Part shown: positions 2,793-29,650 of the stretch, piece after piece | How positions within the stretch are numbered: position 1 is the first letter of the stretch | Layout: every line of letters begins with the position of its first letter | Source: an uncultured Pseudomonadota bacterium | GTDB taxonomy: Bacteria > Myxococcota_A > Polyangia > Fen-1088 | NCBI GenBank assembly: GCA_963779495.1 | Contig: CAVZYM010000005.1 | Span: 2,265,554-2,329,553, forward strand | Direction of reading: 5' to 3' | Length of the DNA: 64,000 nucleotides | Made by a program: the position numbers and the translations under genes | The notes under the pieces: generated by a model | What the model was told of the DNA's origin: nothing | The model's input: the letters and a program-made list of their open reading frames with translations, nothing else | Database searches by the model: none

Positions 2793-4827
2793 TCATGGCG
2801 CCACGGCGGCGGCGGGCGCGGTGTTCGGGGTTGGGCGCACCCGGTCCCAGAACGCGGCGACGTCCTCCAGCAGCTCGGTGCGCGGGCAGTCGGTGGGGAG
2901 GCTGGCGATCAGCGTGTGGCCGTAGGTGCGGCGGGCGATCCGCCCGTCGAGCACGCCGACGATGCCGCGATCGCCGCGGCTGCGGACCAGGCGCCCGAAC
3001 CCCTGCTTCAGGGAGAGCGCCGCGCGCGGGAGCTGGTACTCGGTGAACGGCTCGCCGCCGGCGTCGCGGATGCGGTCGATGCGGGCGGCGGTCAGCGGAT
3101 CGTCGGGGACCGCGAACGGGATCCGGTCCATCACCACCAGCGACAGCGCCTCGCCGGGGACGTCGACCCCCTCCCAGAAGCTCTGCGTCGCCAGCAGCAC
3201 CGAGCCGATCCGCTCGCGCAGAGCCGCCAGCAGCAGGTGGCGCGGGCGCTCGCCCTGGACCAGCAGCGGGAAGGCAGCCTGGGCGCGCAGGTGCGCCTCG
3301 GCCACGCGCAGGTTGCGGAAGCTGGTGAACAGCAGCAGCGCCCGCCCGCCGGTGATCGCGCAGAGCTCGCCCATGCGCGTCGCGACCGCCAGCGGGAAGG
3401 CGTCGTGGTTCGGATCGGGGAGATCGGCCGGCGAGGTAGAGCAGGGCCTGGCGCCGGTAGTCGAAGGGCGACGGGTAGCTGGCGTCGGCGGCCGTGTCGC
3501 CCAGGCCGACGCGCGTGCGCAGGTAGTCGAACGAGCCGGCCACGGTCAGCGTCGCCGAGGTGAGGACGATCGGGCCCGGGCAGGCGTCGAGCGCGCGTCC
3601 GAGCAGCGGCCCGACGTCGACGGGGGAGGCGTGCAGCGCGACGCGCGGGGCGAGGCGGCGAGCCAGCGGACGTGCTCGCGGCCGCGGCTCTCGACCAGCA
3701 GCGCCGAGATCGCCGCGCAGCGCCTCGGCCCGCCGGGAGAGCGCCGCCACCTCGGCGGGGCGCCGCGACGACGCCACCGCCTGGCCGTCGGGGTTCAGCC
3801 AGTCGGCGATCTGTTCCAGCGCGGCGTCGAGCTCGTGGTAGCGCCCGAGCACCGCGCCGGTGGCCAGCTCGATGGGGAACGACAGCCGTGCCTCCTCGAC
3901 GCCGGCGCGCGGCGGCGGCAGCAGGTCGCGCAGCGCATCGGCCAGCGCGCCGGTCGCGGTCAGGAGGCGGGCCGACGCGCGCTGGGCCCGGACCACGTCG
4001 ACCCCGGTCTCGCGCCCGAGGTCGCGGCCGAGCGCGAACAGCCGCTGCGTCGAGGCGTGGACGCCGAAGAACTCCGTCGCCACGTCCTCGATCTGGTGCG
4101 CCTCGTCGAAGATCACCACCTCGTAGGGGGGCAGCACCTGGGCCTCGGGCCAGCGCGCCTTCAGGGCCAGGTCGGCGAAGAACAGGTGGTGGTTGACGAT
4201 CACCAGCGGCGCGGCGGCCGCGCGCCGGCGCATCGCGGTGACGAAGCAGCTCTCGTAGTACGCGCAGCGCGGCCCGATCCGCGTCTCGGGCGTCGCCGCG
4301 ATCTCGCCCCAGACGGCGGCGTCGTCGGGCAGATCGGCCAGCTCGGCCCGATCGCCGGTCGGTGATTCGTTCGCGAAGGCGAGGATGCGCTCGAGCTCGG
4401 GGTCGCGCACCAGGACCCCCTGGCGATCGCGCTCGGCGAGGCGCCGCCGGCAGACGTAGTTGCCGAGCCCCTTCATCACCGCCCACTCGAGCGGCGCCGG
4501 GAGCAGCCCCGCGTGATCGAGCATGGCGCGCAGCCGGGGGAGATCGACGGTGGCGATCTGGTCCTGAAGGGTCTTGGTGCCGGTGCTGACGACCACCTTG
4601 CGGCCCGAGAGCAACGCCGGCACCAGGTAGGCCAGCGTCTTCCCCGTGCCGGTGCCGGCCTCGACCAGCAGCCGCTCGTCGCCGTCGATCGCGGCGGCGA
4701 TCCGGTCGGCCATCGCCAGCTGGCCGGGGCGGGCCTCGTAGCCCGGGAAGACCGACGCCGCCGCGCCGCTCGGCCCCAGCACGCGCCGGATCGCCTCGCG
4801 CGCGGACGTGCTGGCGGTGCCGATCAT
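2793..4827 (-). pseudogene. dinG: DinG-family ATP-dependent DNA helicase, reading frame interrupted (possibly an assembly artefact)
   Basis: MIGTAST..ARPGQLAMADRIAAAI..LLVEAGTGTGKTLAYLVPALL, VIFDEAHQIED and a C-terminal FWEGVDVPGEALSLVVMDRIPFAVPDDP identify the family. The frame changes near 3430: removing one base gives LLYLPADLPDPNHDAFPLAVATRMGELC. A probable compensated pair lies near 3655-3720, where the alternative frame reads LLVESRGREHVRWLA. The start overlaps the hisIE stop (ATGA). Confidence 0.75.
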
Positions 4828-14459: not shown

Positions 14460-15494
14460 ATGGCGCAAGCCTATCAGGTCTGGGCGGGCGTTCTTCTCGC
14501 GGTGGTGCTCTCGGCCTGCGGCGGCGGCGGGCAGCGGTCGGCCGACGCGGGGATCCTGTCCGACGCCGGCGCCGATTCGCTCAGCCTCTGCAACGACATC
14601 CAGCTCGGTACGTTCTTCTCCTCCTCGCCCTACCAGATCGTTCTCGATCGCAGCGCCGGCATGGCGGTGACGATGCCGGGGACCGATCGCACCGTCTGGG
14701 AGCGGACGCGCGAAGCGCTGCTGCCGTTCGCGACCCAGGGGGGCCCCATCGGGCTGACGCTGTTTCCCGACGACGGCGACTGCGCGCGCGGTCCGGTGGC
14801 GGTCCCGTCGGCGATCGGGCCGCGGGCTACGCCCGACGCGGTCCAGGCGGCGCTGGCGGCGGCGACGCCGGCGGGCGGTCGACCGGCGGCGGACGCGGTC
14901 GGGCTCGCGATCGCCGACGGCAAGGTCCTCGAGCCGCTGCTCGGTCGCCCGATCGTCGTGCTGTTCACCAACGGCGCGCCGGAAGCGCTGGCCGGCTGCG
15001 GCGGCGACGGCGACGGCCTGGCGGCGCTGCGCCGCCAGTTCGAAAGCGCGTACGACGCCGGCATTTACGCCTGCATCGCGGCGCTGCCCGGCACCGGAAC
15101 GGCGGCGGACGGCTTGCGCAAGGTCGCGCTGGCCGGCGCGGGAGCCGACCCGACGCGGGCCTGCTACGTCGACTACGACACCGACGACGGGCCCGAGCGG
15201 TTGAAGGCCGACTTCTGCAGCTTCGGATGCCAACGCGTGCCGCGAAGCTGTTTGCTCCACGCCCCCATCGACGAGACCACCTACCTCGACCGCGCCCGTC
15301 TGCTGGTGACCCTGGACGACGCCCCGACGATCAGCCTGGAGCGGACGCCGGGCTGCGCCGAAGGCTCCCCTGACGCCGGCTGGGACGTGGGCGCCGACGG
15401 TCGCTCGATTCAGCTTTGCGGCTCGCTCTGCGCTGATTATGCGGACGCCTGGACCGGCTCGTTCACGCTGACGGTGCTCTGCAGCGTGCCTTAG
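14460..15494 (+). CDS. lipoprotein, VWA-like
   Basis: The signal AGVLLAVVLSACGGGG has a lipobox Cys. IVLDRSAGMAV...GPIGLTLFPDDG...IVVLFTNGAPE resembles a degenerate von Willebrand A fold. The C-terminal part has many Cys. Confidence 0.55.
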   Translation: MAQAYQVWAGVLLAVVLSACGGGGQRSADAGILSDAGADSLSLCNDIQLGTFFSSSPYQIVLDRSAGMAVTMPGTDRTVWERTREALLPFATQGGPIGLTLFPDDGDCARGPVAVPSAIGPRATPDAVQAALAAATPAGGRPAADAVGLAIADGKVLEPLLGRPIVVLFTNGAPEALAGCGGDGDGLAALRRQFESAYDAGIYACIAALPGTGTAADGLRKVALAGAGADPTRACYVDYDTDDGPERLKADFCSFGCQRVPRSCLLHAPIDETTYLDRARLLVTLDDAPTISLERTPGCAEGSPDAGWDVGADGRSIQLCGSLCADYADAWTGSFTLTVLCSVP

Positions 15495-15555
15495 AGCTCG
15501 GAGCCCACGCCACGCAGATAGGCCGGTCGGCCGCGGGCGGCGCATAATCAACGTC

Positions 15556-16896
15556 ATGCTGCGGCGCGGAAGTCTCGGCCTTGCGCTGTCGCTGCTGGCC
15601 CACCTGGCCCTGGTCGTGATCCTGCTGGTGCGCGGAGGGGGCGGCTTCTCGGGCCCGATCGACATCGAGATGACGGGCGGCGTCCACCTGGAGGAGGTCA
15701 AGGACGTCCCGCTGGGCGCGCCGCAACCGGGTGACAAGGGCCAGGAGAAGGCGCGCAAGGCCCGAACCCGCGCGCCCCGCGTCGCCGCCGACGAGGGGAC
15801 CCTGGGGACGCGCCCCGACGACCAGGATCGCAAGGGAGCGGCGGCGACCGAGGACGACAGCGCGCCGGCCCCGACCAGCGACCTCGGCGCCTACGGACCG
15901 ACCGGCTCGCGGCTGACGGTGCTGCTGCGCCTCGACCGCCTGCGCGGGACCGACTACGCCGCGCCGATCGACGACCTGTTGATGCACCTGCCGGATCGCC
16001 GCTTCCTGCTGCAGGGGACGGGGCTGGAGCTGTTCACCGATTTCGACGCGCTGCTGGTCGCGACCCCCAACCCGCGCGATCCGACGGTGACGTTCGTGGT
16101 CGCCCGTCACCATCTGGAGGAGGAGGCCCTGCGCGCGGCGCTGAACCGCGGCGCGCGCGCCGGCGAGCGGCCGCTGACCTGGCGGGTGCAGTACGGCCGG
16201 CCGGTCGGCCAGCGCCGGGTGCGCAAGGTGGAACCCGACGCCACCCTACCGCCCGGCCTCGACGCGCGCGACGATCGTCTGGTCGTGCTGGCGGCGCCCA
16301 AGCTCGCGGTGGTCACGCCGCGCGCCTACCTGGACCTGATGTTCAAGCCCTCGCCCGCGCCCAACGGCCCGGGCGAGGCTGCGCCTGGTGGCGTGAGGCC
16401 GGCGGTCAACGAGGCCGCGCCCGGCAGCGAGGACCCGCAGAGCTCCCAGCGCGCCGGTGTCTGGGCCAACTTGCTCACCCGCATATCCGCCGACGAGGGG
16501 CTGATGCCGCCCGACGGCGTCGTCCTGATCCGCGCGGTCGACATGTGGAAGCCCGCCGGCACCCCCGGCGACGCGTCGCCCGTTCTCTACGGCATGGAGA
16601 TTCCGCAAGAGGTGAAGGGCTTCATCGCCGTCGAGGACGCCGCGCCCGTCCTCGACATCACCGGCACCTTCAAGACCGAGGCGCCCGCCCGCCACTGGGA
16701 GACCGTGTGGCCGGGGCTGCAGCGCAAGCTGCGGACGAACCCGTTCGTGATGCTGTCGGGCTTCTCCGGCGTCGTCGCCCGCGCCACGCTGGTGCGCGAG
16801 GGGGACGCTGTACGGCTGCGGCTCGGCGTCTCGCGCGACGAGGCGCTGCGCCTGCTGACGTTCGCGGTGCAGATGCTGACCAGCCGCGGTATGTGA
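15556..16896 (+). CDS. hypothetical membrane-anchored protein
   Basis: 446-aa ORF with an N-terminal TM segment (LGLALSLLAHLALVVILLV), a charged linker and a globular C-terminal region. I recognise no family. Confidence 0.55.
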   Translation: MLRRGSLGLALSLLAHLALVVILLVRGGGGFSGPIDIEMTGGVHLEEVKDVPLGAPQPGDKGQEKARKARTRAPRVAADEGTLGTRPDDQDRKGAAATEDDSAPAPTSDLGAYGPTGSRLTVLLRLDRLRGTDYAAPIDDLLMHLPDRRFLLQGTGLELFTDFDALLVATPNPRDPTVTFVVARHHLEEEALRAALNRGARAGERPLTWRVQYGRPVGQRRVRKVEPDATLPPGLDARDDRLVVLAAPKLAVVTPRAYLDLMFKPSPAPNGPGEAAPGGVRPAVNEAAPGSEDPQSSQRAGVWANLLTRISADEGLMPPDGVVLIRAVDMWKPAGTPGDASPVLYGMEIPQEVKGFIAVEDAAPVLDITGTFKTEAPARHWETVWPGLQRKLRTNPFVMLSGFSGVVARATLVREGDAVRLRLGVSRDEALRLLTFAVQMLTSRGM

Positions 16897-16974
16897 GCCA
16901 CCGCGATCCCGAAAAAGGGATCCGCCAGCGTCGCAACGGGCATATCGTGAGTGGCTTTTACGGAGGGCCCCCCG

Positions 16975-18204
16975 ATGCGATTCGCCTGGAAGCTTTGGTG
17001 TGTTGGCGCGCTGCTCGGTTCGAGCGTCCTCTTGGGCTGCGCAACGGGGGTGACCGACGATCCCACCGGGAACGGGGGGAGCACGGTCGGAAGCGCCGGC
17101 AGCGGCGGCACGTCGGGCGCGGCCGGCCAACCCGGGATCGCGGGTAGCTCCGGCGGCAGCTCCGGTGTCGCGGGCGCCGCGGGCGGCAGCTCAGGCGTCG
17201 CAGGGACCTCGGGGGGCGGCGGCGGCAGCACCGCGATCACCGGCATCGCCGGCAGCACGGGCGTCGCCGGGGCGGGGACCGGCGGAACGGCGGCCGGCGG
17301 GCAGGGCGGCACGGCGGGGCGTGGCGGCAGCGGCGTGGCGGGACGCGGCGGCAGCGGCGTGGCCGGCGGAAGTGGCGGCAGCGCGGCCGGCACCAGCGGC
17401 GGGGCCGGCGCCGGCGGCGGCGGAGACAAGGTCCCGGCCGATCCGAGCGCGGGCTGCGGCAAGGCGAATCCGGCCGTGGGCTCCTCGGGCAGCCCGCTGA
17501 CTGTCTCGAGCCACCAGTACTACGTGAAGCTGCCGACCGGCTACGACGCGAACAAACCGTACCCCGTCATCATGATGTTCAACCCGACCGGCAACCCGCT
17601 GAGCTGGGCCGAGCAGAGCGCCGGCTTCGAATCGAACGGCGCCAAGGCGGGCGCGATCCGCGTCTATCCGGGGCCGGCCAGCATGGCGAACGGCTGGGGC
17701 GCGGGTGACGTGTCGTTCTTCATGCCCCTCTACAGTCAGATCATCGGCGCCTACTGCGTCGACAAGGCGCGCGTCTTCGCCGCCGGCGAGAGCTCGGGCG
17801 GCGACTTCTCCAGCATCCTCGGCTGCGAGCACGCCGACGTGCTGCGCGCCGTCGCGCCCTGCGCGACGAAGGACGTGAGCGCCTATCCCCTCAACGCCAC
17901 GACGCGCAAGTGCACCGGCCAGGTCACCTCGGTCGTCATCCACGGCAAGAACGACAACGTCGTCGGCCCGGCGAACGGTCCCAAGACCCGCGACTTCTAC
18001 CTGGCGCTGAACCACTGCGGCACCACGAGCACGCCGGTGCAGGGCTACACCGACACGATGTCGAACTGCGTCCAGTACCAGGGGTGCGATGTGCCGTACC
18101 CGGTCTACTGGTGCTTGCACACCAATCCCGAGTACAGCGGCACGAACCACGGCTGGCCCCACTTCGCGGCCAACATGCTCTGGTCGCTGTGGTCGTCGTA
18201 CTGA
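16975..18204 (+). CDS. secreted lipoprotein esterase (PHB depolymerase / feruloyl esterase-like alpha/beta hydrolase) with a Gly-rich linker
   Basis: GGAGGG lies before ATG 16975. MRFAWKLWCVGALLGSSVLLGCA has a lipobox and is followed by about 130 aa of Gly-rich repeats. Then come YYVKLPTGYDANKPYPVIMMFNP and VFAAGESSGGDFSSILG (GxSxG nucleophile elbow). Confidence 0.65.
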   Translation: MRFAWKLWCVGALLGSSVLLGCATGVTDDPTGNGGSTVGSAGSGGTSGAAGQPGIAGSSGGSSGVAGAAGGSSGVAGTSGGGGGSTAITGIAGSTGVAGAGTGGTAAGGQGGTAGRGGSGVAGRGGSGVAGGSGGSAAGTSGGAGAGGGGDKVPADPSAGCGKANPAVGSSGSPLTVSSHQYYVKLPTGYDANKPYPVIMMFNPTGNPLSWAEQSAGFESNGAKAGAIRVYPGPASMANGWGAGDVSFFMPLYSQIIGAYCVDKARVFAAGESSGGDFSSILGCEHADVLRAVAPCATKDVSAYPLNATTRKCTGQVTSVVIHGKNDNVVGPANGPKTRDFYLALNHCGTTSTPVQGYTDTMSNCVQYQGCDVPYPVYWCLHTNPEYSGTNHGWPHFAANMLWSLWSSY

Positions 18205-18210
18205 CCGCGG

Positions 18211-19287
18211 TCAGCGCCCTTCGATAAGCTTCGTCGCGCGCTTCCACCAGGCCGCGACCGGCGGCTCCGCGCGGAACAGCCAGGCCGCCCCGAGGGCCCC
18301 GGCCAGCACGATGAGCACGAGCCACCGGGCGAGCCGCCGCGGTGGCCGCGGCGCCGGCGCGGGGGACGCCACCGGCTCCATCGCGCGCGCGGGGGTGGGG
18401 GCGCGCGCGGGCACGCCCCGGATCGCCCCCTCGAACGCGCGCGCGAACGCCTTGATGGTCGGGAAACGGTCGTCGCGGTTCTTCGACAGCGCCCGCCGCA
18501 GGACCTCGTCCACCTCGGGCGTGAAACGCGGGCCGCCGGGCACCAGCGGCGTCGGCACCGCTGACATCACCTGGTTCAGCGTGCCGTTCACGTCGGGCTG
18601 GCTGAAGGGGAGCTGCGCCGTGAGCGAGAACCAGGCGATGCAGGCCAGCGACCACTGATCACTGCGGTGGTCGATCTGTTCTTGCATCCCGGCGGCCTGC
18701 TCGGGCGGCATGAACTCGGGTGTGCCGAACACCGCCCGCGCGACGGTCAGCTTCGTCGCCGATCGCTTGAGCACCTTCGAGATGCCGAAGTCCACGACCT
18801 TCACGAAGACCGACTGGTCGGGGCGCTGCACCATGAAGACGTTCCCCGGCTTCAGGTCGCGGTGGACGATGCCTCCGGCGTGGGCGACCGTCAGCGCCGA
18901 CGCCAGCTGCGTGACCATGGTGGCGACGGCGTCGGCGGGCAGCGCGCCTTCGCGTTCCAGCCGCACCTGCAGGTCCTCGCCCTCCAGGTACTCCATCACC
19001 AGGTAGGGCTCGCCGCCCGCCGCCTCGCCGAACCCGTAGACGGCGACGACGTGCGGGTGCGACAGCTCCGACGTCACCTTCGCCTCGCGGCGGAACCGGG
19101 CCAGCAGCTCCGGGTACGCCATCAAGCCGCGCGACATGATCTTGATGGCGACGCGCTTGCCGGCGCCCGTGTGCACGCCTTCGTAGACGGCGCCCATGCC
19201 GCCGAGCCCGATCAGGCGCGTGAGCCGGTAGGTCCCGTTGTCGAGGGTGGTGCCGATCGGCAGGGCATCGGGGCTGACGTGGCTCAC
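18211..19287 (-). CDS. Ser/Thr protein kinase with a C-terminal TM anchor
   Basis: LIGLGGMGAVYEG..VAIKIM, HRDLKPGNVF, DFGISK and GTPEFMPPEQ are Hanks kinase subdomains. The C-terminal LARWLVLIVLAGALGAAWLF is a TM segment. The proposed start is GTG at 19287; the rest of the 1001-aa track ORF is read-through. Confidence 0.85.
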   Translation of the reverse strand: MSHVSPDALPIGTTLDNGTYRLTRLIGLGGMGAVYEGVHTGAGKRVAIKIMSRGLMAYPELLARFRREAKVTSELSHPHVVAVYGFGEAAGGEPYLVMEYLEGEDLQVRLEREGALPADAVATMVTQLASALTVAHAGGIVHRDLKPGNVFMVQRPDQSVFVKVVDFGISKVLKRSATKLTVARAVFGTPEFMPPEQAAGMQEQIDHRSDQWSLACIAWFSLTAQLPFSQPDVNGTLNQVMSAVPTPLVPGGPRFTPEVDEVLRRALSKNRDDRFPTIKAFARAFEGAIRGVPARAPTPARAMEPVASPAPAPRPPRRLARWLVLIVLAGALGAAWLFRAEPPVAAWWKRATKLIEGR

Positions 19288-19325
19288 GTGGGACGCAACG
19301 ATACTGAAGTTCTGAGGCCCAGCGA

Positions 19326-19337
19326 GTGAGATCTCAC
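19326..19337. promoter_or_regulatory. perfect 12-bp palindrome GTGAGATCTCAC in the kinase/Rhs divergent intergenic region
   Basis: Read directly from the sequence. It is the only perfect palindrome of this length in the 165-nt lower-GC spacer. Its function is unknown. Confidence 0.25.
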
Positions 19338-19452
19338 CCGCGCCTCCGCGCCGAAAAAATCTCGGGGTTCCGCGAGGATGCTTTGCTTGACTATCCCGTT
19401 TCGCCGCCTCGCGTCGGAGTTTTTGCACAGACACGACCCGACAGGCGTCTTC

Positions 19453-22400
19453 ATGTCGGGAGGACTCCTGGGCATGGTCGCATTCAGGGTTGGTTCGGCT
19501 GTTGTGGTCGCTTCGCTGGTCGTCTTTTCCGGTTGTCGGGGCGGTGATCCGCCCGCGACTCCGACGAAAGGAGCGGCCATCCTGTCGGCTCTGCGCGGTA
19601 GACCGGGGTCGCCGTTCGCGGCGCGCGGGAAGGCGACATTCGACACGAGCGGCGGTGTCCTTCGGGCGCGGTTCGTGGAGAAGGACGCCGAGCCGACGCG
19701 CGCGCGGGTCACGCTGCCGATGCTGGCGAGCGCGGCGGTCCGGGTCGAGGACGCGGGCAGCGGCGCCGGCGTCGACGTCTCGCTGAGGGGGGCATCGTCT
19801 TCGTCGGCCCAGACGGTCGATGGACACGTCGTCTACCCGGAGGCCCTCGCCGGGGGCGCGACGCTGATCCAGCGGCCGCTCGCGAGCGGCGTCGAGGACT
19901 TCGTCAACTTCGAGACGCGCCCCGCGAAGCCGGAGCTGACGTACGACATCTCGCCCAGCAAGGGTGTCAGCGGGCTGCGCCTGGTGGACAACACGCTGGA
20001 GCTGCTCGACGCGGGCGGCGCGCCGCGCCTGCGCGTGGCGCCCCCCTACGTCGTCGGCGCGGACGGCGTCGAGACCGGCGCGATCCTGGCCGTCGAGGGG
20101 TGCGCCGTGGACAGCAATCCGTCGGCCCCCTGGGGGCGCGCGGTGACGGCGCCCGGCGCCACGCACTGCACGCTGCGCGTGCGCTGGCCGGAGTCGGTCG
20201 CCTATCCGGCGGTGGTCGACCCGCGCTGGACGACGACGGGGGCGATGATCACGGCGCGGCAGGAGCACACGGCCACGCTGCTTTCCACGGGCAAGGTGCT
20301 CGTGGTCGGCGGGCGGACCACGACCGGGACAGCGGCGCTCTCCAGCGCCGAGCTGTACGACCGGGCGACCGGGCTCTGGGCGGCCACGGGGAGCATTTCC
20401 GGCGCGCGGCGGCTGCACAGCGCGACGCAGCTCAACACGTCCTCGAATGCGACGACCAGCGGCAAGGTGCTGGTGGCGGGCGGCATCGACGGGACGAGCA
20501 CGCTGACGACCGCGCAGCTCTACTCGCCGACGGAAGGCACCTGGATCGCGGCGGGCAACCTGAACACGGGGCGCTATGCGCACACGGCGACACTGCTCGC
20601 CGGCAGCGCCGATGGGAAGGTGCTGCTCGCCGGCGGCGTGAGCGGCTCGACGACGCTGGCCACCGCGGCGATCTACAACCCGGCCTCGGGCGCCGGGGCG
20701 TTCGCGGCGACGACGGGGCCGCTCCCGCAGGGGGTGAAGGCGCACACCGCCACGCGACTCGCGACCGGCAACGCGCAGCTGAACAACAAAGTGCTGCTGG
20801 TCGGCGGCAACAACGGCTCGCTCTCGCTCTCCGCGGTCTATCTGTTCGACCCCACGTCGTCGGCCTTCAGCACGCTGGCGTCGCTCTCGACCCCGCGCGA
20901 GGGGCACACGGCGACGCTCCTGGCCGACGGCAAGCTGCTGGTGACAGGCGGCAAGAATGGGTCGACGACCCTGGCGACGACGCTCCAGTTCGACCCCGGC
21001 ACCGGGCCCGGGTCGTGGTCGACGAAGGGGAACCTGACGATCGCGCGCTGGGGGCACACGGCGACGCTGCTGCCGGCGACGGTCCTGGGGAACGGGCAGC
21101 TGCTGGTGGCGGGCGGAAACAGCGGCAGCGCGACGTTGTCGTCGTCGGAGCTCTACAGCGTTGCGCCCGGGACCTGGGCGCCGACGGCGGCGATGGCGGG
21201 GGCGGTGCAGGGGCACACGGCCACGTTGTTGCCCAGCAACATGGTCCTGCTGGCTGGCGGGCTCAGCGGGACGACCGTGCAGGGCGCGGCGCAGCTGTAC
21301 GACACGTCATCGGGCCTCGGGTGCAGCACCAACAGCCAGTGCGCCAGCGGCTTCTGCGTGAGCGGCGTCTGCTGCGACACCGCCTGCAACGGCGGCTGTG
21401 GCAGCTGCAACCTCGCGGGCTTTCCGGGGACGTGCAAGCCGCTCAGCAACACGACGGCCTGCCGCGCGTCGGCGGGCGCCTGCGACGTCGCCGAGACCTG
21501 CAACGGGACGTCGGTGGCCTGCCCGGCCGACGCATTCGCGGCGGCGACGGCGACCTGCCGCGGCGCGAACGGCGTGTGCGACGCGGCCGAGACCTGCACC
21601 GGCACGTCAGCGGCGTGCCCGGCTGATGCGCTCAAGCCGGCGAACACGGCCTGCACCGACGACGGCAACCTCTGCACGCAGGACAAGTGCAACGGCACGA
21701 GCGTGGCGTGCCAGCACCCGGCGGGGAACGCGGGAACGGTCTGCCGCGTCTCGGTCGGGTTGTGCGACGTGGCGGAGAGCTGCAACGGGACGTCGACCGC
21801 CTGCCCAACGGACGGGTTCGCGCCCGCGACGACGACGTGTCGTGGCGCCGCCGGCGAGTGCGACGTGGCCGAGATCTGCACCGGCACGTCCGCGGCATGT
21901 CCCGCCAACGCGCTGAAGCCGGCCAACACGCCCTGTACCGACGACGGCTTTGTCTGCACCCAGGACAAGTGCGACGGCACGATGACGGCGTGCCAGCACC
22001 CGGCGGGGAACCCAGGGACGGTTTGCCGTGCGGCGGACGGGTTGTGCGACGTGGCCGAGACCTGCACCGGTTCGGCGACCGCCTGCCCTGCGGATGGGTT
22101 CTTGCCCCCGACGACGACCTGCCGTCCGGTCGCCAGGGAGTGCGACGTGGCGGAGACGTGCACGGGGACGCAGCCGGTCTGCCCACCGGATGTGTCTGCC
22201 CCGAACGGCGCCCAGTGCAGTGACGGCAACGGCTGCACGTTGGCCGACACCTGCCAGTCGGGCAATTGTACGGCCGGCACTCCGGTGACCTGCACCGCGC
22301 AGGACCAGTGCCACGTCGCGGGTGTCTGCCAGGGATCGGGGACCTGCACCAATCCGGTCGTCGCCGACGGGACGCCGTGCACGGGTGGCCAGTGCGCCGC

Positions 22401-25400
22401 GGGGAGCTGCCAGTCGGGAACGCCGACGGGAAACCCGCCGACGCCAATCGACCCGACGGTCCCGCTCGACTTCCGGCAAGCCAACGCCTTCCTTTACGAG
22501 GGACCGAACGCCCAGCAGGTCGGCGTCGTGCCAGGAACAATCAAGCGAGCGCGCATCGGCGTTCTCCGCGGGCGTGTCACGGACGGACAAGGGCAACCGC
22601 TGTCTCAGGTCACCGTGCGGGTCGCCAGTCGTCCCGAATACGGAGCCACCCAGACCGCCGACGACGGCGTGTTCAGCTTGGCGGTCAACGGGGGCGAGCA
22701 GATACGCCTGGCCTACGACCGCGAGGGGTTCCTGCCCGTCCAAAGAACCGAGTTCGTGACCCCGCTCGACTACGGCTGGTTCCCCGACGTGACGATGACG
22801 GCGCTCGATTCCGCCCGGACAATCGTCGATCTCGGCGGTGGCTCTGGACCGCAGGTCGCGACCGCCACACCGACCTCGGATGCCAGTGGGCCGCGTCAGT
22901 CAATCGTTATCTTCCCGTCAGGCACCCAGGCGACCATCACCGAGAACGGCGGCGCGCCTCAACCGGCCACCACGCTGGCACTGCGTTCGACCGAGTACAC
23001 GGTGGGACCAGGGGGGCCTCAGGCCATGCCGGGGCCGCTGCCTCCGAGCTCCGGGTACACCTATGCCGTCGAGCTGAGCGTCGACGAGGCGCTGGGGCCG
23101 GGAACGCGGGTCGATTTCAACCGCCCCGTGATCAACTACGTCGACAACTTCCTGCATTTCCCGGTCGGCTCGCCCGTGCCTGTGGGCTACTACGACCGCG
23201 TCGCCGGAATGTGGGTCCCCGCCCCGAACGGGCGGGTGATCAGGGTCATCGAGAGCTTCGGCGGTTTCGCCGAGCTCGACACGGACGGGGACAGCGCACC
23301 AGATGACGCTTCCACGCTCGCGGCGTTGGGGATCGACGACGAAGAGCGCGCGACCCTGGCCACCCTCTACTTGCCCGGTCAGGACGTGTGGCGGGTGCCG
23401 GTGACGCACCTGACCCCTTGGGACTACAACTGGCCGTTGGCCCCGCCCGAGGACTTCGTGTACCCGGATGATCCCGATCCGCGGCCCAGGAACAAGCCGA
23501 CGGAGTCGAGCGACGGGCGTAAACCGCCCTGCGATGAGATTCAGGTCGGATCGTCGGTGGCTTGCAGCTCCCAAACGTTGAGTGAGGCCGTTCCCATCAC
23601 CGGAACGCCATTCTCACTCGTTTACACGACGTCGCGCTCTCCGGCATACGGTGCCGGGGCTGCTACGACAGACGTGAAGGTCAGTGGTCCGACGATTCCG
23701 GCCTCGGTCAAACGGATCGAAGTGTCCACGACCATCGCGGGGCGTCTGATTAAGCAAACATTCGCGCCGGCGCCCAACATCACGACTTCGGTGCCATGGG
23801 ATGGTCGCGACGCCTATGGCCGTGCTGTTACAGGCCGTCAGCCTGCCACGGTCAGCGTAACGTATGTTTACGGCGGCGTTTATAACCGTCCACTAGAAGA
23901 CGTGATCAGCTCGTTTGGGCGGTTTTCCGAGTTTCCCGAGATTCCGATCGATGGAGACCTCGGCCGAGGCGAGTTGTTTGCTCCGCACGTCGGCAAAACC
24001 ATGATCGAGCACCCGAATGCGTCGCTCGAGGAGGGCCTTGGAGGCTGGACGCTGGACGTCCACCACACCTACGACCCCCGAACGTTGACGTTGACCCGGG
24101 GCGACAACAAAAGACTCTCAGCCGATGCCCTCGGAGGCCGCGCCGCGGCGAACACGGCAAAGCTGTTAACCGAGGATGGCAGCATCGGCATCACCGACTT
24201 CCGTGTCACCAGCGACGGCAAAATATATACGGCCGGTTACGGCCGTATTCTGAGGATCGGGGATGATGGCGCCATCGAGGTTGTCGCGACTGATGTGGAG
24301 CCCACGTCCTTGGTGATCGCGGGTACGCGCGTATTCTTCTCCAATCAGCACGAATACCACGGCGGAGAAGCCCAATTAGTATACTGGCCAGGCCAGATCA
24401 AGGAACTGAAAGGGGATGGCAGCGTCGTGACACTGGCCGGGAGCACGAGGGAGGACTGCACTCCTCCGGACTATTACTCGAATCACGCCGCCCCGTTGTT
24501 CTTCGGCAATGAAGGTCCCGCGACGGACGCATGCTTGGAGAACATAAGGAGCGTAGGCGTCGCGCCCGACGGAACCATCTACGTGCTCGGCTACGTGTCC
24601 TTCCATTGGCAAATCCGGCGGATTACTTCCGACGGGATCATTCACGCGTTTTTGTCCGGAGGATTTCCGCAGGACGGTTCGACTGTGGACAAGCCGGGAT
24701 TCTTCGCCGGTGACCTGGCCATTTCTGGTGACTACTCAATGTACCTCAATGGCACCTATGCCACGGAAATTGACTTTGGCCGTTATCGGCCCTATCGAGG
24801 CGTGTTTCAGCGTCTGCTAACGAACGGCGCCGTGCAACCGGTGCTAACGATCGATTATCCGAACGGCAGCGCCAGCCTCTGCACCATCGACGAACTCACC
24901 AATGGCACCAGCGTGCCTCGTTGTCAGCCCAGTGCCGTGACGGTCGGGCCCGACGGACTCCTTTACGCTCAAACGAACGTGTCATTCAACGATCCGCGAT
25001 TCCCCGATTGGCCGCAGCACATGGCGAGAGTTGTGAGGATTCGCCCGGACGGCGTGCTGGCGGAAGCGTTCGCTGGCTTCAGCGACATGAACGTTTCAAA
25101 ATACACGATGTCGAGCGACGGCACGATCCTGATGATGGCGCGCCCATTCGCCGGACTCGGACGGGACGACAACCAGTATTGGGGAGCCCTTTCACTCTAC
25201 CGGCTCTACCCCAACCTCCCCTCCGTGTCGGACCAAGGATATCTCCTCCCGGCGAGCGACGGCAGCGAGATCTACTCATTCGACAACCGGGGACGCCACC
25301 TCCGCACGTACGACCGGACGGGGGCCGTCACGAAGCTTGAGTTTCAATATAACACCACCAACGGCCTTCTGACCGGCATCGCTGATCGGAATGGGCTGAC

Positions 25401-28293
25401 AACGACGATCGAGCGCGACGGCAGCGGTAAGCCGACCGCTATCGTTGCGCCCAACGGCCAACGAACGACACTCGCCGTGGACCCGAATGGATATCTCAGC
25501 TCCATCACGAGCCCCACCAACGCCATCGTGCAGTTCACGTACGTCAACGGCGCGATGACGCAGGAGATTGATGCCCGGAACGGAGTCCACCGGTTCACGT
25601 ACGATCCAGACGGAAGGCTCATCGTCGACCGCACGCCCACGACCGGTGAATGGACCTTCTCGCGTTCTCCGGATGGCTCGGTTGTCAGCTCGGCGAGCGC
25701 CGAAGGGGTCAACCATTCGTATGCTGTCAGCGAGCCGGTAGGCGCTTCCCAGCAAACGATCGTCGATGGCGCCGGTCTCACGTCGACGGTCCGTACCGAC
25801 GCTGCCGGGATGAGTCATGCCACGATGAGCAACGGCGTCGAGACGTTCACAAAGACCACTCCCGACCCTCGCTTCGGTGCGGCTGCGCCCTACGTCTCCC
25901 AAGAGTCCACCCGCACTCCGAGCGGACTGACGTCGATCACCAACATAAAGCGTCAGACGACTGTGTCTCCCGGCAATCCGCTCGTCATGACGGCACAGAC
26001 CCAAACGATCACCGTCAATGGGAAGACCACGACCGTGGCCTACGACGGGACGGCTCTGGAAACGCTGGTCACGTCGCCCGCGGGGAGGCAGACCGTCTAT
26101 CGCACGGACGACCATGGGCGGCTCGTCTATCTCCGGCGAGGAACCCTCGCTCCCGTCTCGTTGGCCTACGACGGACAGGGACGGCGGGTCGGCAGCCAGA
26201 TTGGTACGGGCAGCGACATCCGGACAACCACGGTGACCTACGATCCGCAGAGTCGTCCGGACTCCGTCACCGACGCGTCGTCGAGGATCAGCCACCTGAC
26301 CTATGACGCGGGCAATCGGTTGACTTCGATCGCGCGGGGCGGCGGTCTTCCGCTCAGCTTCTCGTACAACGGGGCCGACGATCTGGTGTCCCTCACCCCG
26401 CCTGGGGGCAGCGCTTTTACGTTCGGCTTTACGGCGGCAGGGGACACCGCCTCTTACTCGGTCCCTGGCGTCGGCGGCGAAAATCCGACGACCGGATTCG
26501 AGTTCGATCTCGATCGACGACTGACCCGGATCATCAACCCCGCGGGGACCCAGGCCGTCTTTGGCTATGAACCCGTAACCGGCAGGATCGCGAGCATCAC
26601 CTACGCCCGGGACGCCGGCGTGGCGGCGGCGGGAAATGTGACCGCGTCGATCGTGTACGCTCCGACAACAGGCAACGTACAGACGATCGCCGTCACCGAT
26701 GGTCCCCAGCTGACCTTCCAGTACGACGGACCGCTTCTGCTCTCGACGACCTGGTCCGGTTCCATCGCGGGAAGCATCAGCCACAGCTATGACAGCGACT
26801 TTCGCGTCATCAGCCAGAGCGTGAACGGAGGCAATACGGTCTCTTTCAGCTACGATGCCGATGGCTTGCCGACGGCTCTCGGCGACCTGACGCTGACGCG
26901 CGACATTCCGAATGGGTTCGTGACCGATTCGACTCTGGGTGGCGTCACCGATCACACGGCGTACACGATGTTCGGCGAGGTCCGAGACTATGAGGTCCGG
27001 CACGCGGGGCAGCCGCTGTACCACGCCGACTACCAGGCGCGAGACGCGCTCGGTCGGATCGAGACGAAGGTGGAAACGATCCAGGGCGTCACGACCACCT
27101 GGAGCTACGGGTACGACGACGCTGGCCGACTCTCTCAGGTCATGAAGGATGGCACCGTGACCGCGTCATACGGGTACGACGCCAAGGGGAACCGGACGAG
27201 CGGCCCGGCCCTGCCGACGGCGCCCGTCTACGACGTTCAGGACAGGCTGCTCAGCTATGGACACTGGGCCTTCACCTACACCGCCGGCGGAGATCTATCG
27301 ACCAAGACGGATACGAACAGCGGCGCAGTGACGAGGTACCACTACGACAGCGCCGGCGCGCTCCGCGAGGTCCGGCTGCCGGATGGTCGTTTGATCGAAT
27401 ATGTCATCGATGCCGCCGGCCGCCGTGCCGGGAAGAAGGTTGACGGGGTGCTGGTGAAGGGGTGGCTCTACGGCGAAGATGATCTGACGGTCGTCGCAGA
27501 GTTGGACGGGAGCGGCGGCGTCGTGAGCCGGTTCGTCGACAACCGCTATTTCGTCCGCGGTGGCGCGACCTACCGTGTCGTCACGGACGAAATCGGCACC
27601 GTCCGTCTGGTGGTGGATGTCGCGACGGGGGCGGTGGCGCAACGCCTCGACTACGATGAGTTCGGTAATGTCCTGCAGGACACGTCGCCCGGGTTCCAGC
27701 CGCTGGGGTTTGGCGGGGGCCACTACGATCCCGACACCGGACTCGTGCGCTTCAGGGCGCGGGACTACGATCCGACCGTGGGACGATGGACGGCGAGGGA
27801 TCCCATCATGTTCGAAAGTGGGGAGGCGCTTCTCTACGCGTACGTGGGAAACGACCCCGTGAACCATGTCGATCCGACCGGTCTCGTGAAGTTGGAGCTC
27901 AACAGGGCTACCGGCGAGTTGCTCGTTGACCCGGAACGGCCGGGCGCGGACCCCTATGTTCTCGGGGCCGATTCGGGCAAGGAGAAGTGCCGGAACAATC
28001 CGCTATGCGAGAGAAAAAAGGACCAGGGCCCCACGCCCAGAGGGGATTACCACTTCAAGCCGAGTGGAATAAAGCCGTCGCCCAGCGACGGTCGAGACTG
28101 GGGCCCTTGGCGCGTCAGGCTGACGCCGGATTCCGGGACCAATACCTTCGGTCGTGACAGGTTCTACCTCCACGGGGGGAAGACGCCGGGCACGAGCGGG
28201 TGCATCCAAATCAACCGAGAGATGGACCTGGAGCGGCTCAGATTCGAGCTTGAGTCGGATCCGGACGACTACGTACCATTGTTAGTGCGGTGA
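19453..28293 (+). CDS. Rhs/YD-repeat polymorphic toxin with teneurin-like architecture and a lipoprotein-type signal
   Basis: One uninterrupted frame. MSGGLLGMVAFRVGSAVVVASLVVFSGC starts at ATG 19453. It contains Kelch blades, Cys-rich repeats, TTR/FN-plug (WRVPVTHLTPWDYNWP), an NHL-like propeller, about 2 kb of YD repeats, an RHS core ending DPVNHVDPTGL, and then a 135-aa C-terminal domain. Confidence 0.9.
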   Translation: MSGGLLGMVAFRVGSAVVVASLVVFSGCRGGDPPATPTKGAAILSALRGRPGSPFAARGKATFDTSGGVLRARFVEKDAEPTRARVTLPMLASAAVRVEDAGSGAGVDVSLRGASSSSAQTVDGHVVYPEALAGGATLIQRPLASGVEDFVNFETRPAKPELTYDISPSKGVSGLRLVDNTLELLDAGGAPRLRVAPPYVVGADGVETGAILAVEGCAVDSNPSAPWGRAVTAPGATHCTLRVRWPESVAYPAVVDPRWTTTGAMITARQEHTATLLSTGKVLVVGGRTTTGTAALSSAELYDRATGLWAATGSISGARRLHSATQLNTSSNATTSGKVLVAGGIDGTSTLTTAQLYSPTEGTWIAAGNLNTGRYAHTATLLAGSADGKVLLAGGVSGSTTLATAAIYNPASGAGAFAATTGPLPQGVKAHTATRLATGNAQLNNKVLLVGGNNGSLSLSAVYLFDPTSSAFSTLASLSTPREGHTATLLADGKLLVTGGKNGSTTLATTLQFDPGTGPGSWSTKGNLTIARWGHTATLLPATVLGNGQLLVAGGNSGSATLSSSELYSVAPGTWAPTAAMAGAVQGHTATLLPSNMVLLAGGLSGTTVQGAAQLYDTSSGLGCSTNSQCASGFCVSGVCCDTACNGGCGSCNLAGFPGTCKPLSNTTACRASAGACDVAETCNGTSVACPADAFAAATATCRGANGVCDAAETCTGTSAACPADALKPANTACTDDGNLCTQDKCNGTSVACQHPAGNAGTVCRVSVGLCDVAESCNGTSTACPTDGFAPATTTCRGAAGECDVAEICTGTSAACPANALKPANTPCTDDGFVCTQDKCDGTMTACQHPAGNPGTVCRAADGLCDVAETCTGSATACPADGFLPPTTTCRPVARECDVAETCTGTQPVCPPDVSAPNGAQCSDGNGCTLADTCQSGNCTAGTPVTCTAQDQCHVAGVCQGSGTCTNPVVADGTPCTGGQCAAGSCQSGTPTGNPPTPIDPTVPLDFRQANAFLYEGPNAQQVGVVPGTIKRARIGVLRGRVTDGQGQPLSQVTVRVASRPEYGATQTADDGVFSLAVNGGEQIRLAYDREGFLPVQRTEFVTPLDYGWFPDVTMTALDSARTIVDLGGGSGPQVATATPTSDASGPRQSIVIFPSGTQATITENGGAPQPATTLALRSTEYTVGPGGPQAMPGPLPPSSGYTYAVELSVDEALGPGTRVDFNRPVINYVDNFLHFPVGSPVPVGYYDRVAGMWVPAPNGRVIRVIESFGGFAELDTDGDSAPDDASTLAALGIDDEERATLATLYLPGQDVWRVPVTHLTPWDYNWPLAPPEDFVYPDDPDPRPRNKPTESSDGRKPPCDEIQVGSSVACSSQTLSEAVPITGTPFSLVYTTSRSPAYGAGAATTDVKVSGPTIPASVKRIEVSTTIAGRLIKQTFAPAPNITTSVPWDGRDAYGRAVTGRQPATVSVTYVYGGVYNRPLEDVISSFGRFSEFPEIPIDGDLGRGELFAPHVGKTMIEHPNASLEEGLGGWTLDVHHTYDPRTLTLTRGDNKRLSADALGGRAAANTAKLLTEDGSIGITDFRVTSDGKIYTAGYGRILRIGDDGAIEVVATDVEPTSLVIAGTRVFFSNQHEYHGGEAQLVYWPGQIKELKGDGSVVTLAGSTREDCTPPDYYSNHAAPLFFGNEGPATDACLENIRSVGVAPDGTIYVLGYVSFHWQIRRITSDGIIHAFLSGGFPQDGSTVDKPGFFAGDLAISGDYSMYLNGTYATEIDFGRYRPYRGVFQRLLTNGAVQPVLTIDYPNGSASLCTIDELTNGTSVPRCQPSAVTVGPDGLLYAQTNVSFNDPRFPDWPQHMARVVRIRPDGVLAEAFAGFSDMNVSKYTMSSDGTILMMARPFAGLGRDDNQYWGALSLYRLYPNLPSVSDQGYLLPASDGSEIYSFDNRGRHLRTYDRTGAVTKLEFQYNTTNGLLTGIADRNGLTTTIERDGSGKPTAIVAPNGQRTTLAVDPNGYLSSITSPTNAIVQFTYVNGAMTQEIDARNGVHRFTYDPDGRLIVDRTPTTGEWTFSRSPDGSVVSSASAEGVNHSYAVSEPVGASQQTIVDGAGLTSTVRTDAAGMSHATMSNGVETFTKTTPDPRFGAAAPYVSQESTRTPSGLTSITNIKRQTTVSPGNPLVMTAQTQTITVNGKTTTVAYDGTALETLVTSPAGRQTVYRTDDHGRLVYLRRGTLAPVSLAYDGQGRRVGSQIGTGSDIRTTTVTYDPQSRPDSVTDASSRISHLTYDAGNRLTSIARGGGLPLSFSYNGADDLVSLTPPGGSAFTFGFTAAGDTASYSVPGVGGENPTTGFEFDLDRRLTRIINPAGTQAVFGYEPVTGRIASITYARDAGVAAAGNVTASIVYAPTTGNVQTIAVTDGPQLTFQYDGPLLLSTTWSGSIAGSISHSYDSDFRVISQSVNGGNTVSFSYDADGLPTALGDLTLTRDIPNGFVTDSTLGGVTDHTAYTMFGEVRDYEVRHAGQPLYHADYQARDALGRIETKVETIQGVTTTWSYGYDDAGRLSQVMKDGTVTASYGYDAKGNRTSGPALPTAPVYDVQDRLLSYGHWAFTYTAGGDLSTKTDTNSGAVTRYHYDSAGALREVRLPDGRLIEYVIDAAGRRAGKKVDGVLVKGWLYGEDDLTVVAELDGSGGVVSRFVDNRYFVRGGATYRVVTDEIGTVRLVVDVATGAVAQRLDYDEFGNVLQDTSPGFQPLGFGGGHYDPDTGLVRFRARDYDPTVGRWTARDPIMFESGEALLYAYVGNDPVNHVDPTGLVKLELNRATGELLVDPERPGADPYVLGADSGKEKCRNNPLCERKKDQGPTPRGDYHFKPSGIKPSPSDGRDWGPWRVRLTPDSGTNTFGRDRFYLHGGKTPGTSGCIQINREMDLERLRFELESDPDDYVPLLVR
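20224..21310 (+). other. Kelch-type beta-propeller region of the Rhs protein (seven blades)
   Basis: Seven units of the form R-x-x-HTATLL-x(2-10)-GKVLVxGG-x-G-x(6-10)-ELY/IY-x-P-x-x-G-x-W. Confidence 0.75.
21316..22420 (+). repeat. Cys-rich repeat region of the Rhs protein, including about 2.4 copies of a 282-nt (94-aa) super-repeat
   Basis: CRxxxGxCDVAExCxGTSxACPxD modules. The super-repeat copies start at 21460, 21742 and 22024, an exact 282-nt period. Confidence 0.8.
22552..23440 (+). other. carboxypeptidase-regulatory (TTR)-like domain plus FN-plug-like region, as in teneurins
   Basis: RIGVLRGRVTDGQGQPLSQVTVRV...DDGVFSLAVNGG, then MPGPLPPSSGYTYAVELSVDEA, NFLHFPVGSPVPVGYYDRVAGMWVPAPNGRVI and LYLPGQDVWRVPVTHLTPWDYNWP. 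Confidence 0.7.
27335..27885 (+). other. RHS repeat-associated core domain ending at the predicted autoproteolysis motif
   Basis: RLDYDEFGNVLQDTSPGFQPLGFGGGHYDPDTGLVRFRARDYDPTVGRWTARDPIMFESGEALLYAYVGNDPVNHVDPTGL. Confidence 0.85.
27886..28293 (+). other. C-terminal toxin domain, Tlde1/DUF2778-like (L,D-transpeptidase/YkuD fold)
   Basis: 135 aa follow DPTGL. GPTPRGDYHF...WRVRLTP...FGRDRFYLHGGKTPGTSGCIQINREMDLERL matches the H-x(n)-S-x-GC catalytic pattern of YkuD-fold enzymes and the GPxPxGxY lead-in of DUF2778. Confidence 0.55.
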
Positions 28294-29183
28294 TGATCGC
28301 GCTCGCCCTCCTCGTGATGGGGACGGTTTCGCCCGGGCGGTCCGGCCCGGGCCACGTGGCTCCGATTGTGGGCGCACTGGAAGACGTGGAGGTAGCGGGC
28401 CGCGAGGAGGGCCACCTCGCCCGCCGGGTGAGGACGCTGTTCCGGTACGACGGCCACAAATGGATGGCCTACCCGCACCGTCCTCGGGACCAGCGAGAGC
28501 TCCGGGGCCTCGCAGGCAAGTTCCCGCCTTCGGTCTCCTGGACCATCTGCCATGATGGGAAGGCGCTGGGTGTCGTCGTGGGTCGCGCGAGCCGGCGATG
28601 GGGCTTCTACGGTCAAGTCGGCCTTCAGGAGCCGATTCCCGATTCAGTCGCGCCCAGCGTGGGCGAGCCGAGCCGGCGGTTTGCAGGGGACTCCGAGCTT
28701 CCCGTGCACCATCCGCTCGTGGCGACCACGGGACGGTGTCGGCTGGACGGATGGGCCTTGGTTCCTAGCCTGCCGAAGGAAGTTCAGGATCGCGTGATCG
28801 CCGCGCTCCCGGATCCGGGAGCGTCGCAGAGACGCGTCACCAGCTACGCTTGGCCCGCGTCGTACCGCGGCCCCGAGGGGAGTTGGATCGTCGAGGTCCA
28901 TCGTTCCGTGCCGCGTCTCACCGAACGCCGCGTGGTCTTCGTCGGCCCCGAGGGGACCACTGTGGCCGCCGGTGAGCCGGGCAGCCATGTCGGACTTTCG
29001 GATGACACGGGACCGCTGGCGCCCGGAAGAATCAGTCCTCAGTTGATCGTCGATATCGGCGACTGGAACGGTGATGGCAAGAGCGAGGTCTTGACGAAGT
29101 TCGAGCGGGATAACCTCGAGGGATACATCCTGCTCTCCAGCTCGGGCCAAGCGCTGGCGACCTTCGACTGGAACTATCACTAG
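28290..29183 (+). CDS. candidate cognate immunity protein (secreted, FG-GAP-like C-terminal motif)
   Basis: GTG 28290 or ATG 28293 overlaps the Rhs stop (GTGATGA). The N-terminus MMIALALLVMGTVSPG is hydrophobic. The C-terminus DIGDWNGDGKSEVL is an FG-GAP/VCBS-like Ca-binding motif. GC is as low as in the 3' part of the Rhs gene. Confidence 0.55.
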   Translation: MMIALALLVMGTVSPGRSGPGHVAPIVGALEDVEVAGREEGHLARRVRTLFRYDGHKWMAYPHRPRDQRELRGLAGKFPPSVSWTICHDGKALGVVVGRASRRWGFYGQVGLQEPIPDSVAPSVGEPSRRFAGDSELPVHHPLVATTGRCRLDGWALVPSLPKEVQDRVIAALPDPGASQRRVTSYAWPASYRGPEGSWIVEVHRSVPRLTERRVVFVGPEGTTVAAGEPGSHVGLSDDTGPLAPGRISPQLIVDIGDWNGDGKSEVLTKFERDNLEGYILLSSSGQALATFDWNYH

Positions 29184-29338: not shown

Positions 29339-29650
29339 ATGACGACCCGCATGAAGACTTGGACCTATACGATGTTCGCCGCGCTGCTCTTCACCTTCGG
29401 CGCCGCGGCCGGCGCGGGCTGCGACGCGGTCGAAACCGCGTTCGACTGCGATCAGGTCTGCGCGCGTTACCAGAACTGCTTCGATGGCGACTACGACGTC
29501 GGTGCCTGTCGCAGCCGGTGCCGCGATCGCGCGGCCAACGACGACAGCGTCCGGCAGGCCGCCGACACCTGTGAGGACTGCATCGACGACATGTCCTGCG
29601 CCTCGGCGACGTTCAACTGCGGCGCCAGCTGCAGCAACATCGTTCCGTAA
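29339..29650 (+). CDS. small Cys-rich lipoprotein
   Basis: GAAGGAG lies 6 nt before the ATG. MKTWTYTMFAALLFTFGAAAGAGC has a lipobox. There are 11 Cys in 103 aa. Confidence 0.6.
   Translation: MTTRMKTWTYTMFAALLFTFGAAAGAGCDAVETAFDCDQVCARYQNCFDGDYDVGACRSRCRDRAANDDSVRQAADTCEDCIDDMSCASATFNCGASCSNIVP

Follow-up and report, generated by a model that had tools for sequence, protein, structure and literature searches.

Is the open reading frame (ORF) that starts on the stop codon of a large Rhs toxin gene the immunity gene of that toxin, and to which protein family does it belong? This question is raised by a 64,000-nt window of contig CAVZYM010000005.1 from an uncultured bacterium of the GTDB class Polyangia. 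The window has a G + C content of ~70%, and all positions given without a locus handle are coordinates of this whole stretch. An earlier note on the same DNA had proposed that the ORF, here designated ORF297, encodes an exported immunity protein of an unrecognised family that acts against a peptidoglycan-targeting toxin. Our results are in line with this proposal: the tip of the upstream toxin matches PF10908 (45.4 bits), ORF297 matched none of the families in Pfam or NCBIfam, and the pairing of its homologues with such toxins recurs at other loci. We conclude that ORF297 probably encodes a cognate, exported immunity protein that acts against the Tlde1-like tip of the Rhs protein encoded upstream, and that it represents an undescribed family. 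The support is genomic and consists of a real gene, a Tlde1 toxin, a repeated pairing of family and toxin whatever the scaffold, and signal-like segments. The relevant features are as follows.

19378..28293, forward strand: teneurin-like Rhs/YD polymorphic toxin gene, 2971 aa, recognised with Pfam and NCBIfam
27871..28290, forward strand: toxin tip of the Tlde1/DUF2778 type (YkuD fold), located after a DPTGL motif and carrying the catalytic-type motif YLHGGKTPGTSGCIQI
28290..28295, forward strand: junction GTGATG, in which the Rhs stop codon TGA (28291–28293) overlaps the candidate start codons GTG (28290) and ATG (28293)
28290..29183, forward strand: candidate immunity gene (ORF297), 297 aa from GTG, G + C contents at the first, second and third codon positions (GC1/2/3) of 0.71/0.52/0.79, member of an unannotated family of ~300-aa proteins predicted to be mostly beta
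28290..28367, forward strand: signal-like N-terminal segment (aa 1–26) that precedes the conserved G-[VA]-L-E, hydrophobic from residue 2, no basic n-region
29052..29093, forward strand: FG-GAP-like loop DIGDWNGDGKSEVL, a single loop of the DxDxDG type, sub-threshold match to FG-GAP_3 (E = 0.085)

ORF297 is a genuine gene, since its GC1/2/3 values show a coding pattern and homologues with 52% identity (E = 1e-82) were found. Many long spurious ORFs are present in all frames of the window, and ORF297 could in principle be a further chance open frame in high-GC DNA. However, the coding pattern and the homologues, together with 220 matches at E ≤ 1e-10 and a confidently predicted fold, refute this explanation, to which we attach practically no probability. 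The overlap of the start with the Rhs stop codon, as described in the earlier note, was confirmed by the shared bases of the junction. After the in-frame stop at 28251, GTG 28290 and then ATG 28293 are the sole start codons up to this point. The G + C content of ORF297 is 0.63–0.69 and that of the 3' two-thirds of the Rhs gene is 0.58–0.66, while the flanks reach 0.72–0.77. Similarly, the GC3 value of ORF297 is as low as that of the toxin tip (0.77), which agrees with an observation made earlier, compared to 0.895 for the 5' third of the Rhs gene and 0.88–0.93 for neighbouring native genes. The resulting low-GC segment spans ~23.3 kb to 29.2 kb and contains the 3' portion of the Rhs gene and ORF297.

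The Rhs protein features Pfam matches to TEN_YD-shell, Kelch, Disintegrin, TTR_TEN1-4, FN-plug and RHS_repeat. Its layout comprises a lipoprotein-type signal (..ASLVVFSGC, encoded at 19378–19560), a Kelch propeller, Cys-rich disintegrin-like repeats, TTR, FN-plug, a YD shell and an Rhs core, of which TIGR03696 (Rhs_assc_core) covers aa 2759–2836. A PAAR domain was not found in the protein with Pfam. The toxin tip (aa 2864–2967) corresponds to the Tlde1_dom family PF10908 with E = 1.3e-11 and a score above the cut-off of 30.1 bits. It was assigned to Tlde1/DUF2778 based on this score and on the presence of a motif of the H...[ST]xGC type. In a leave-one-out hidden Markov model (HMM) of the toxins it scored 74 bits. 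The tip is the sole Tlde1 domain of the genome, which also harbours a sheath gene of a type VI secretion system (T6SS) ~800 kb away and three Rhs cores; the assembly (G000) consists of 5 contigs with 6.2 Mb in total and has an estimated completeness of 68%. As a speculation, the toxin might be delivered by outer-membrane exchange in a myxobacterium.

We infer that the window copy of the candidate immunity protein is exported and that it directly binds and neutralises the toxin. ORF297 would be translated together with the end of the Rhs gene, because the overlap of stop and start suggests coupling. The product would then be exported to the periplasm by the Sec system via its N-terminal hydrophobic segment, may bind the L,D-carboxypeptidase/transpeptidase-type toxin domain there and could block the access of the toxin to peptidoglycan stem peptides. 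The predicted outcome is protection of the producer and its kin. The N-terminus (V/M-MIALALLVMGTVSPG) was found to be hydrophobic, as previously noted, with a Kyte-Doolittle mean of 2.7 over the best 10 aa, yet it lacks a basic n-region. A hydrophobic segment ahead of GVLE is present in all 41 aligned family members, and a basic K/R n-region in 31 of them.

How large is the family, and is it known? ORF297 yielded no match to any Pfam or NCBIfam family. In a word-indexed protein search only two relatives (51–52% identity) were recovered, whereas an exhaustive profile search of 1.84 billion representatives gave 473 proteins at E ≤ 1e-3, which are cluster representatives at 50% identity. It is due to this exhaustive search that the size of the family became visible. 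Members are ~300 aa in length, carry an N-terminal signal-like segment and originate chiefly from Acidobacteriota. Common motifs are the hydrophobic N-terminal segment, G-V-L-E, conserved Trp residues, YRPLV, DPDxWK, [LV]DAGDYDGDGxSE and a C-terminal YH. Best conserved is the FG-GAP-like loop, [LV]-D-A-G-D-[YFW]-D-x-D-G-x-S-E, in which D254, G256, D257, G262 and E265 are invariant or nearly so in the alignment of 41 members. The C-terminal FG-GAP/VCBS-like motif described in the earlier note is thus present, but its likeness to the known family is weak. The score of DIGDWNGDGKSEVL against FG-GAP_3 (13.9 bits) is below the gathering threshold of 26.9 bits, and FG-GAP matches at E ≤ 0.01 were obtained for four of the 41 homologues. 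At the same threshold, nothing besides FG-GAP and FG-GAP_3 was found in Pfam for the 41 members. DIGDWNGDGKSE resembles one blade of FG-GAP/VCBS proteins (PF01839, PF13517) in being a single DxDxDG-type loop. It differs from these proteins in that one sub-threshold motif is present instead of a propeller of repeats. The family is new to the libraries searched (Pfam, NCBIfam, PDB, BFVD), and it did not appear in the literature searched.

The AlphaFold2 model obtained from the alignment of 41 sequences is mostly beta and reached a predicted local distance difference test value (pLDDT) of 88.4 and a predicted template modelling score (pTM) of 0.87. Comparison of this model with the PDB by Foldseek did not result in a match (best E = 0.1, template modelling score < 0.25), nor did comparison with BFVD. 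A sequence-profile search of the PDB gave nothing significant, with YesW as the best hit (E = 0.39). The modelled fold of the family is therefore apparently new. An initial prediction based on three sequences (pLDDT 60, empty PDB search) was superseded by this model.

Does the family occur next to Tlde1-type toxins elsewhere? For this analysis, 22 loci from species-representative genomes and 75 metagenome loci were used. The 22 genome loci are mostly from Acidobacteriota; the others belong to Anaeromyxobacteraceae, Verrucomicrobiia, Terricaulis, Inquilinaceae, Bdellovibrio, Binataceae and Dormiibacterota. Six-frame translations were scanned with Rhs-core queries and toxin-tip HMMs, and matches were verified by Pfam. 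In addition to the window, the family gene was found immediately downstream of a toxin-encoding 3' end, on the same strand, at seven loci:

L001: Rhs tip, Tlde1_dom 41.4 bits, 4-nt gap followed by family member P0004
L022: Rhs protein of Anaeromyxobacteraceae, YkuD 25.4 bits (cut-off 23.4), ATGA overlap
L066: Rhs protein, Tlde1_dom 37.6 bits, ATGA overlap
L088: Rhs protein, Tlde1_dom 33.9 bits
L090: Rhs protein, Tlde1_dom 32.6 bits, family gene split by a frameshift
L095: Rhs protein, no Pfam hit, leave-one-out HMM 44 bits, TEGCI motif, 14-nt overlap
L116 (G405): free 125-aa Tlde1 protein, Tlde1_dom 34.1 bits

Two further loci are of a related kind:

L085: degraded Tlde1-like remnant directly ahead of the family gene, Tlde1_dom sub-threshold with 19.4 bits (E = 0.0015), E = 4e-6 with the local toxin HMM
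L097: orphan Rhs tip downstream of the family gene, upstream side cut by the contig end

The toxin tips are mostly just 17–34% identical to each other in pairwise comparison and are both Rhs-borne and free, and therefore the link is maintained despite deep divergence and in both delivery formats. Maximum-likelihood analysis of 80 members placed the toxin-linked ones in at least four separate clades, with five state changes on the tree, which means that the link is not a single inherited accident. The window member groups with those of L001, L022 and the lone L002 (Shimodaira-Hasegawa-like approximate likelihood ratio test value of 98). At L088 and L090, neighbouring orphan Rhs tips with other toxin types are not trailed by a member of the family. 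These orphan modules, composed of an Rhs core and a C-terminal toxin (L088:1793-3892, L090:1873-3465), flank the Tlde1/immunity pair.

These results also bear on a very improbable alternative, namely that ORF297 is a passenger of a horizontally acquired low-GC segment without any tie to the toxin. Immunity would then be encoded elsewhere, or would be dispensable owing to enclosure of the toxin by the YD shell. The segment includes both genes, and Rhs shells are known to encapsulate their toxins, which speaks for a passenger. On the other hand, the family follows diverged Tlde1-like tips at independent loci with overlapping junctions, and ORF297 is the only candidate ORF located downstream of the toxin tip and ahead of the first native-GC gene, at 29339.

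Most homologues, however, are not found beside a toxin. Upstream DNA of 500 nt or more was available for 60 non-redundant loci. A Tlde1-like toxin was present upstream in 7 of them (12%), whereas the other 53 (~88%) lack an upstream Tlde1-like domain. The neighbours of lone copies are unrelated among loci and include CHAD/Ppx-HD, AhpC/thioredoxin, esterase, PLD, TonB_C, polysaccharide deacetylase, RecX and DUF6580; P0005 (L002–L004) is a lone copy that adjoins a BON-domain gene. One copy per genome was detected in 20 of the 22 genomes, the other two being G405 with two intact copies and G418 with two fragments of one broken gene. Any match to PF10908 was limited to four of the 22 family-carrying genomes. 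Among 300 other species genomes of Terriglobia, 7 (~2%) carry the family, and no member was detected in 400 genomes from the phylum of the window, where matches were at chance level. The GC3 value of the family gene is usually lower than that of flanking genes. Such a distribution is what a rare, mobile accessory gene would show.

Lone immunity genes without a cognate toxin, with patchy spread and variable context, are a general phenomenon. Since the lone copies of the family are rare, patchy, single-copy and located in variable contexts, they may be orphan immunity genes directed against Tlde1-type toxins of neighbours, which fits better than a housekeeping role. Compared to orphan immunity genes in general, the orphan state is here deduced from genomics, and orphans outnumber paired copies by ~7:1. 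The earlier note had asked whether homologues always stand beside DUF2778-like toxins: the association does recur at other loci in several clades, but it is not constant. It had further regarded homologues widespread away from toxins as evidence against an immunity function. Toxin-free copies indeed form the large majority of loci, although they are rare, patchy and single-copy.

Several observations weigh against ORF297 being a dedicated immunity protein. The high share of loci without an upstream toxin could mean that the family has another primary role. Typical immunity proteins are smaller and poorer in motifs than this family, whose length of ~300 aa and conserved polar residues (E30, R47, D254, D257, E265 and the C-terminal YH) might indicate a ligand-binding or enzymatic role. 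The window copy and its nearest relatives do not possess the basic n-region that characterises a canonical Sec signal. Pairwise identities of toxins and immunity candidates correlate over eight pairs (Mantel r = 0.93, p = 0.001; Spearman 0.51), but two close pairs dominate and shared ancestry alone could explain the correlation, which was thus given little weight. Finally, pairing is not universal, since in the same kinds of genomes other Tlde1-like toxins (L112, L113, L115) precede unrelated ORFs.

One alternative is that the family has a periplasmic function of its own, for example recognition of a cell-wall or polysaccharide ligand via the Ca-type FG-GAP loop, or regulation of endogenous YkuD-type enzymes. 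The location behind Tlde1 toxins would then reflect secondary recruitment in few lineages, or an accessory or helper role. Such a function would be compatible with the prevalence of toxin-free loci, the polar residues and YH kept family-wide, and a length roughly double that of Tldi1a, the known Tlde1 immunity protein with 138 aa. L077 additionally has a canonical YkuD-motif ORF (HG...H..TDGCV; 3974-4600, minus strand) 2.2 kb from its lone family member, which may be a coincidence. A housekeeping role is nevertheless ill-suited to a gene with the sparse occurrence described above, without conserved neighbours and with atypical GC3, and a toxin helper would not persist where the toxin is missing, as is the case in 18 of the 22 genomes, in which no Tlde1 domain was found. 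In addition, the pairing is seen in four or more clades and involves both Rhs-borne and free toxins. We therefore consider an independent function unlikely.

Tlde1/Tae5 (DUF2778) is toxic in the periplasm, and the immunity protein of the Tae5 family is a DUF2195 protein with a Sec signal, while for the other two DUF2778 families the immunity proteins are unannotated and either exported or membrane-anchored (Sibinelli-Sousa et al., preprint, 10.1101/2020.02.18.954545). Since L112, L113 and L115 are followed by unrelated ORFs, Tlde1-type toxins appear to use several immunity families, which matches the literature. L112 and L113 (L112:719-2196, L113:1411-2522; G401, G420) encode free Tlde1 proteins of ~135 aa (Tlde1_dom 45–46 bits), and the following ORF of ~210 aa is conserved, anchored by a transmembrane segment and without a Pfam match. 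It is a candidate for a second Tlde1 immunity family in Acidobacteriota. At L115 (687-2140; G414), an Rhs tip that is Tlde1-like, but sub-threshold in Pfam, precedes an unrelated exported ORF of 250 aa, a candidate for a third immunity type, and then an Rhs fragment.

Which characterised system comes closest? Tlde1a/Tldi1a (Tae5/Tai5) of the T6SS encoded on Salmonella pathogenicity island 6 (SPI-6) of Salmonella Typhimurium shares the toxin family (DUF2778/Tlde1, YkuD fold, catalytic His/Cys). It combines a periplasm-acting toxin with an adjacent immunity gene whose product is exported (10.1101/2020.02.18.954545; PMC9638812), an arrangement also predicted for the window pair. Tldi1a, however, is a DUF2195 protein of 138 aa whose gene lies upstream of that for a free T6SS effector of 173 aa, whereas ORF297 has 297 aa and is located downstream, and the window toxin is the tip of a teneurin-like Rhs protein with a lipoprotein signal and without PAAR. 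No match to DUF2195 was found in Pfam for ORF297 at E ≤ 1 or for the 41 members at E ≤ 0.01. The structure of Tlde1a was solved alone, as the immunity protein did not co-purify (PMC9638812), and a Tlde1 effector-immunity complex was not found in the literature or PDB searched.

Fusions of Rhs and DUF2778 are known (10.1101/2020.02.18.954545), and, as cited in the same preprint, L,D-peptidase polymorphic toxins were linked to Imm16 (DUF2750) and Imm57 by Zhang et al. 2012. These Rhs-DUF2778/Tox-LD-peptidase toxins likewise have an Rhs-borne L,D-peptidase tip with the immunity gene behind it, and orphan toxin/immunity modules are present in some relatives (L088, L090). They differ in their partners: neither ORF297 nor the 41 members matched Imm16 or Imm57 in Pfam, and the family of ORF297 is unannotated and has no PDB fold match. 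The architecture of the toxin is thus already known, and the new part is the candidate immunity family.

As weapons that edit peptidoglycan, Tlde1-type toxins form a characterised class. The immunity proteins known for them are small and diverse, and they have been catalogued poorly. Here, a large and well-conserved candidate immunity family was found to pair with Tlde1 toxins, either Rhs-borne or free, in Myxococcota and Acidobacteriota from soil. Such a family would offer a tractable system for the inhibition of YkuD-fold enzymes by proteins and would make it possible to test if orphan immunity genes are common throughout soil communities. Taken as one further toxin/immunity pair the gain is incremental; the value lies in the size of the family, its apparently new fold and the many orphans in soil Acidobacteriota. 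A more far-reaching interpretation, which we regard as possible but rather doubtful, is that the whole family consists of dedicated inhibitors of YkuD-fold (Tlde1-type) L,D-peptidases, with the lone acidobacterial copies acting as stand-alone shields against toxins of neighbours. If true, the family would be a horizontally traded resistance gene at the community level and a natural protein scaffold for inhibiting enzymes with the L,D-transpeptidase fold.

The surroundings of the locus contain one further feature in the 3' direction:

29339-29650: Cys-rich ORF of 103 aa with a lipobox-like signal (..GAAAGAGC), native GC3 of 0.88, no Pfam match

This ORF marks the 3' limit of the low-GC segment. 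On the other side, three co-directional ORFs at 14460-18204, upstream of the Rhs gene, show GC3 values of 0.90–0.93 and have no Pfam match. Neither the upstream ORFs of the window (14460-19329) nor the ORF at 29339 gave a Pfam match, and VgrG or PAAR were not found among them. L017 was left out as a pair because another ORF and repeats separate its Rhs gene from the family gene; two repeat copies (..SDKVQVMRAV[D/N]ATQS..) are located at L017:5050-5800 between the Rhs gene, which is followed by a 200-aa ORF, and the family gene. Several representatives (P0019, P0036, P0053) carry N-terminal extensions of 150–200 aa without a Pfam match. At L038:353-1189, ankyrin repeats are encoded in an open frame directly upstream of a family member, to which they are possibly fused.

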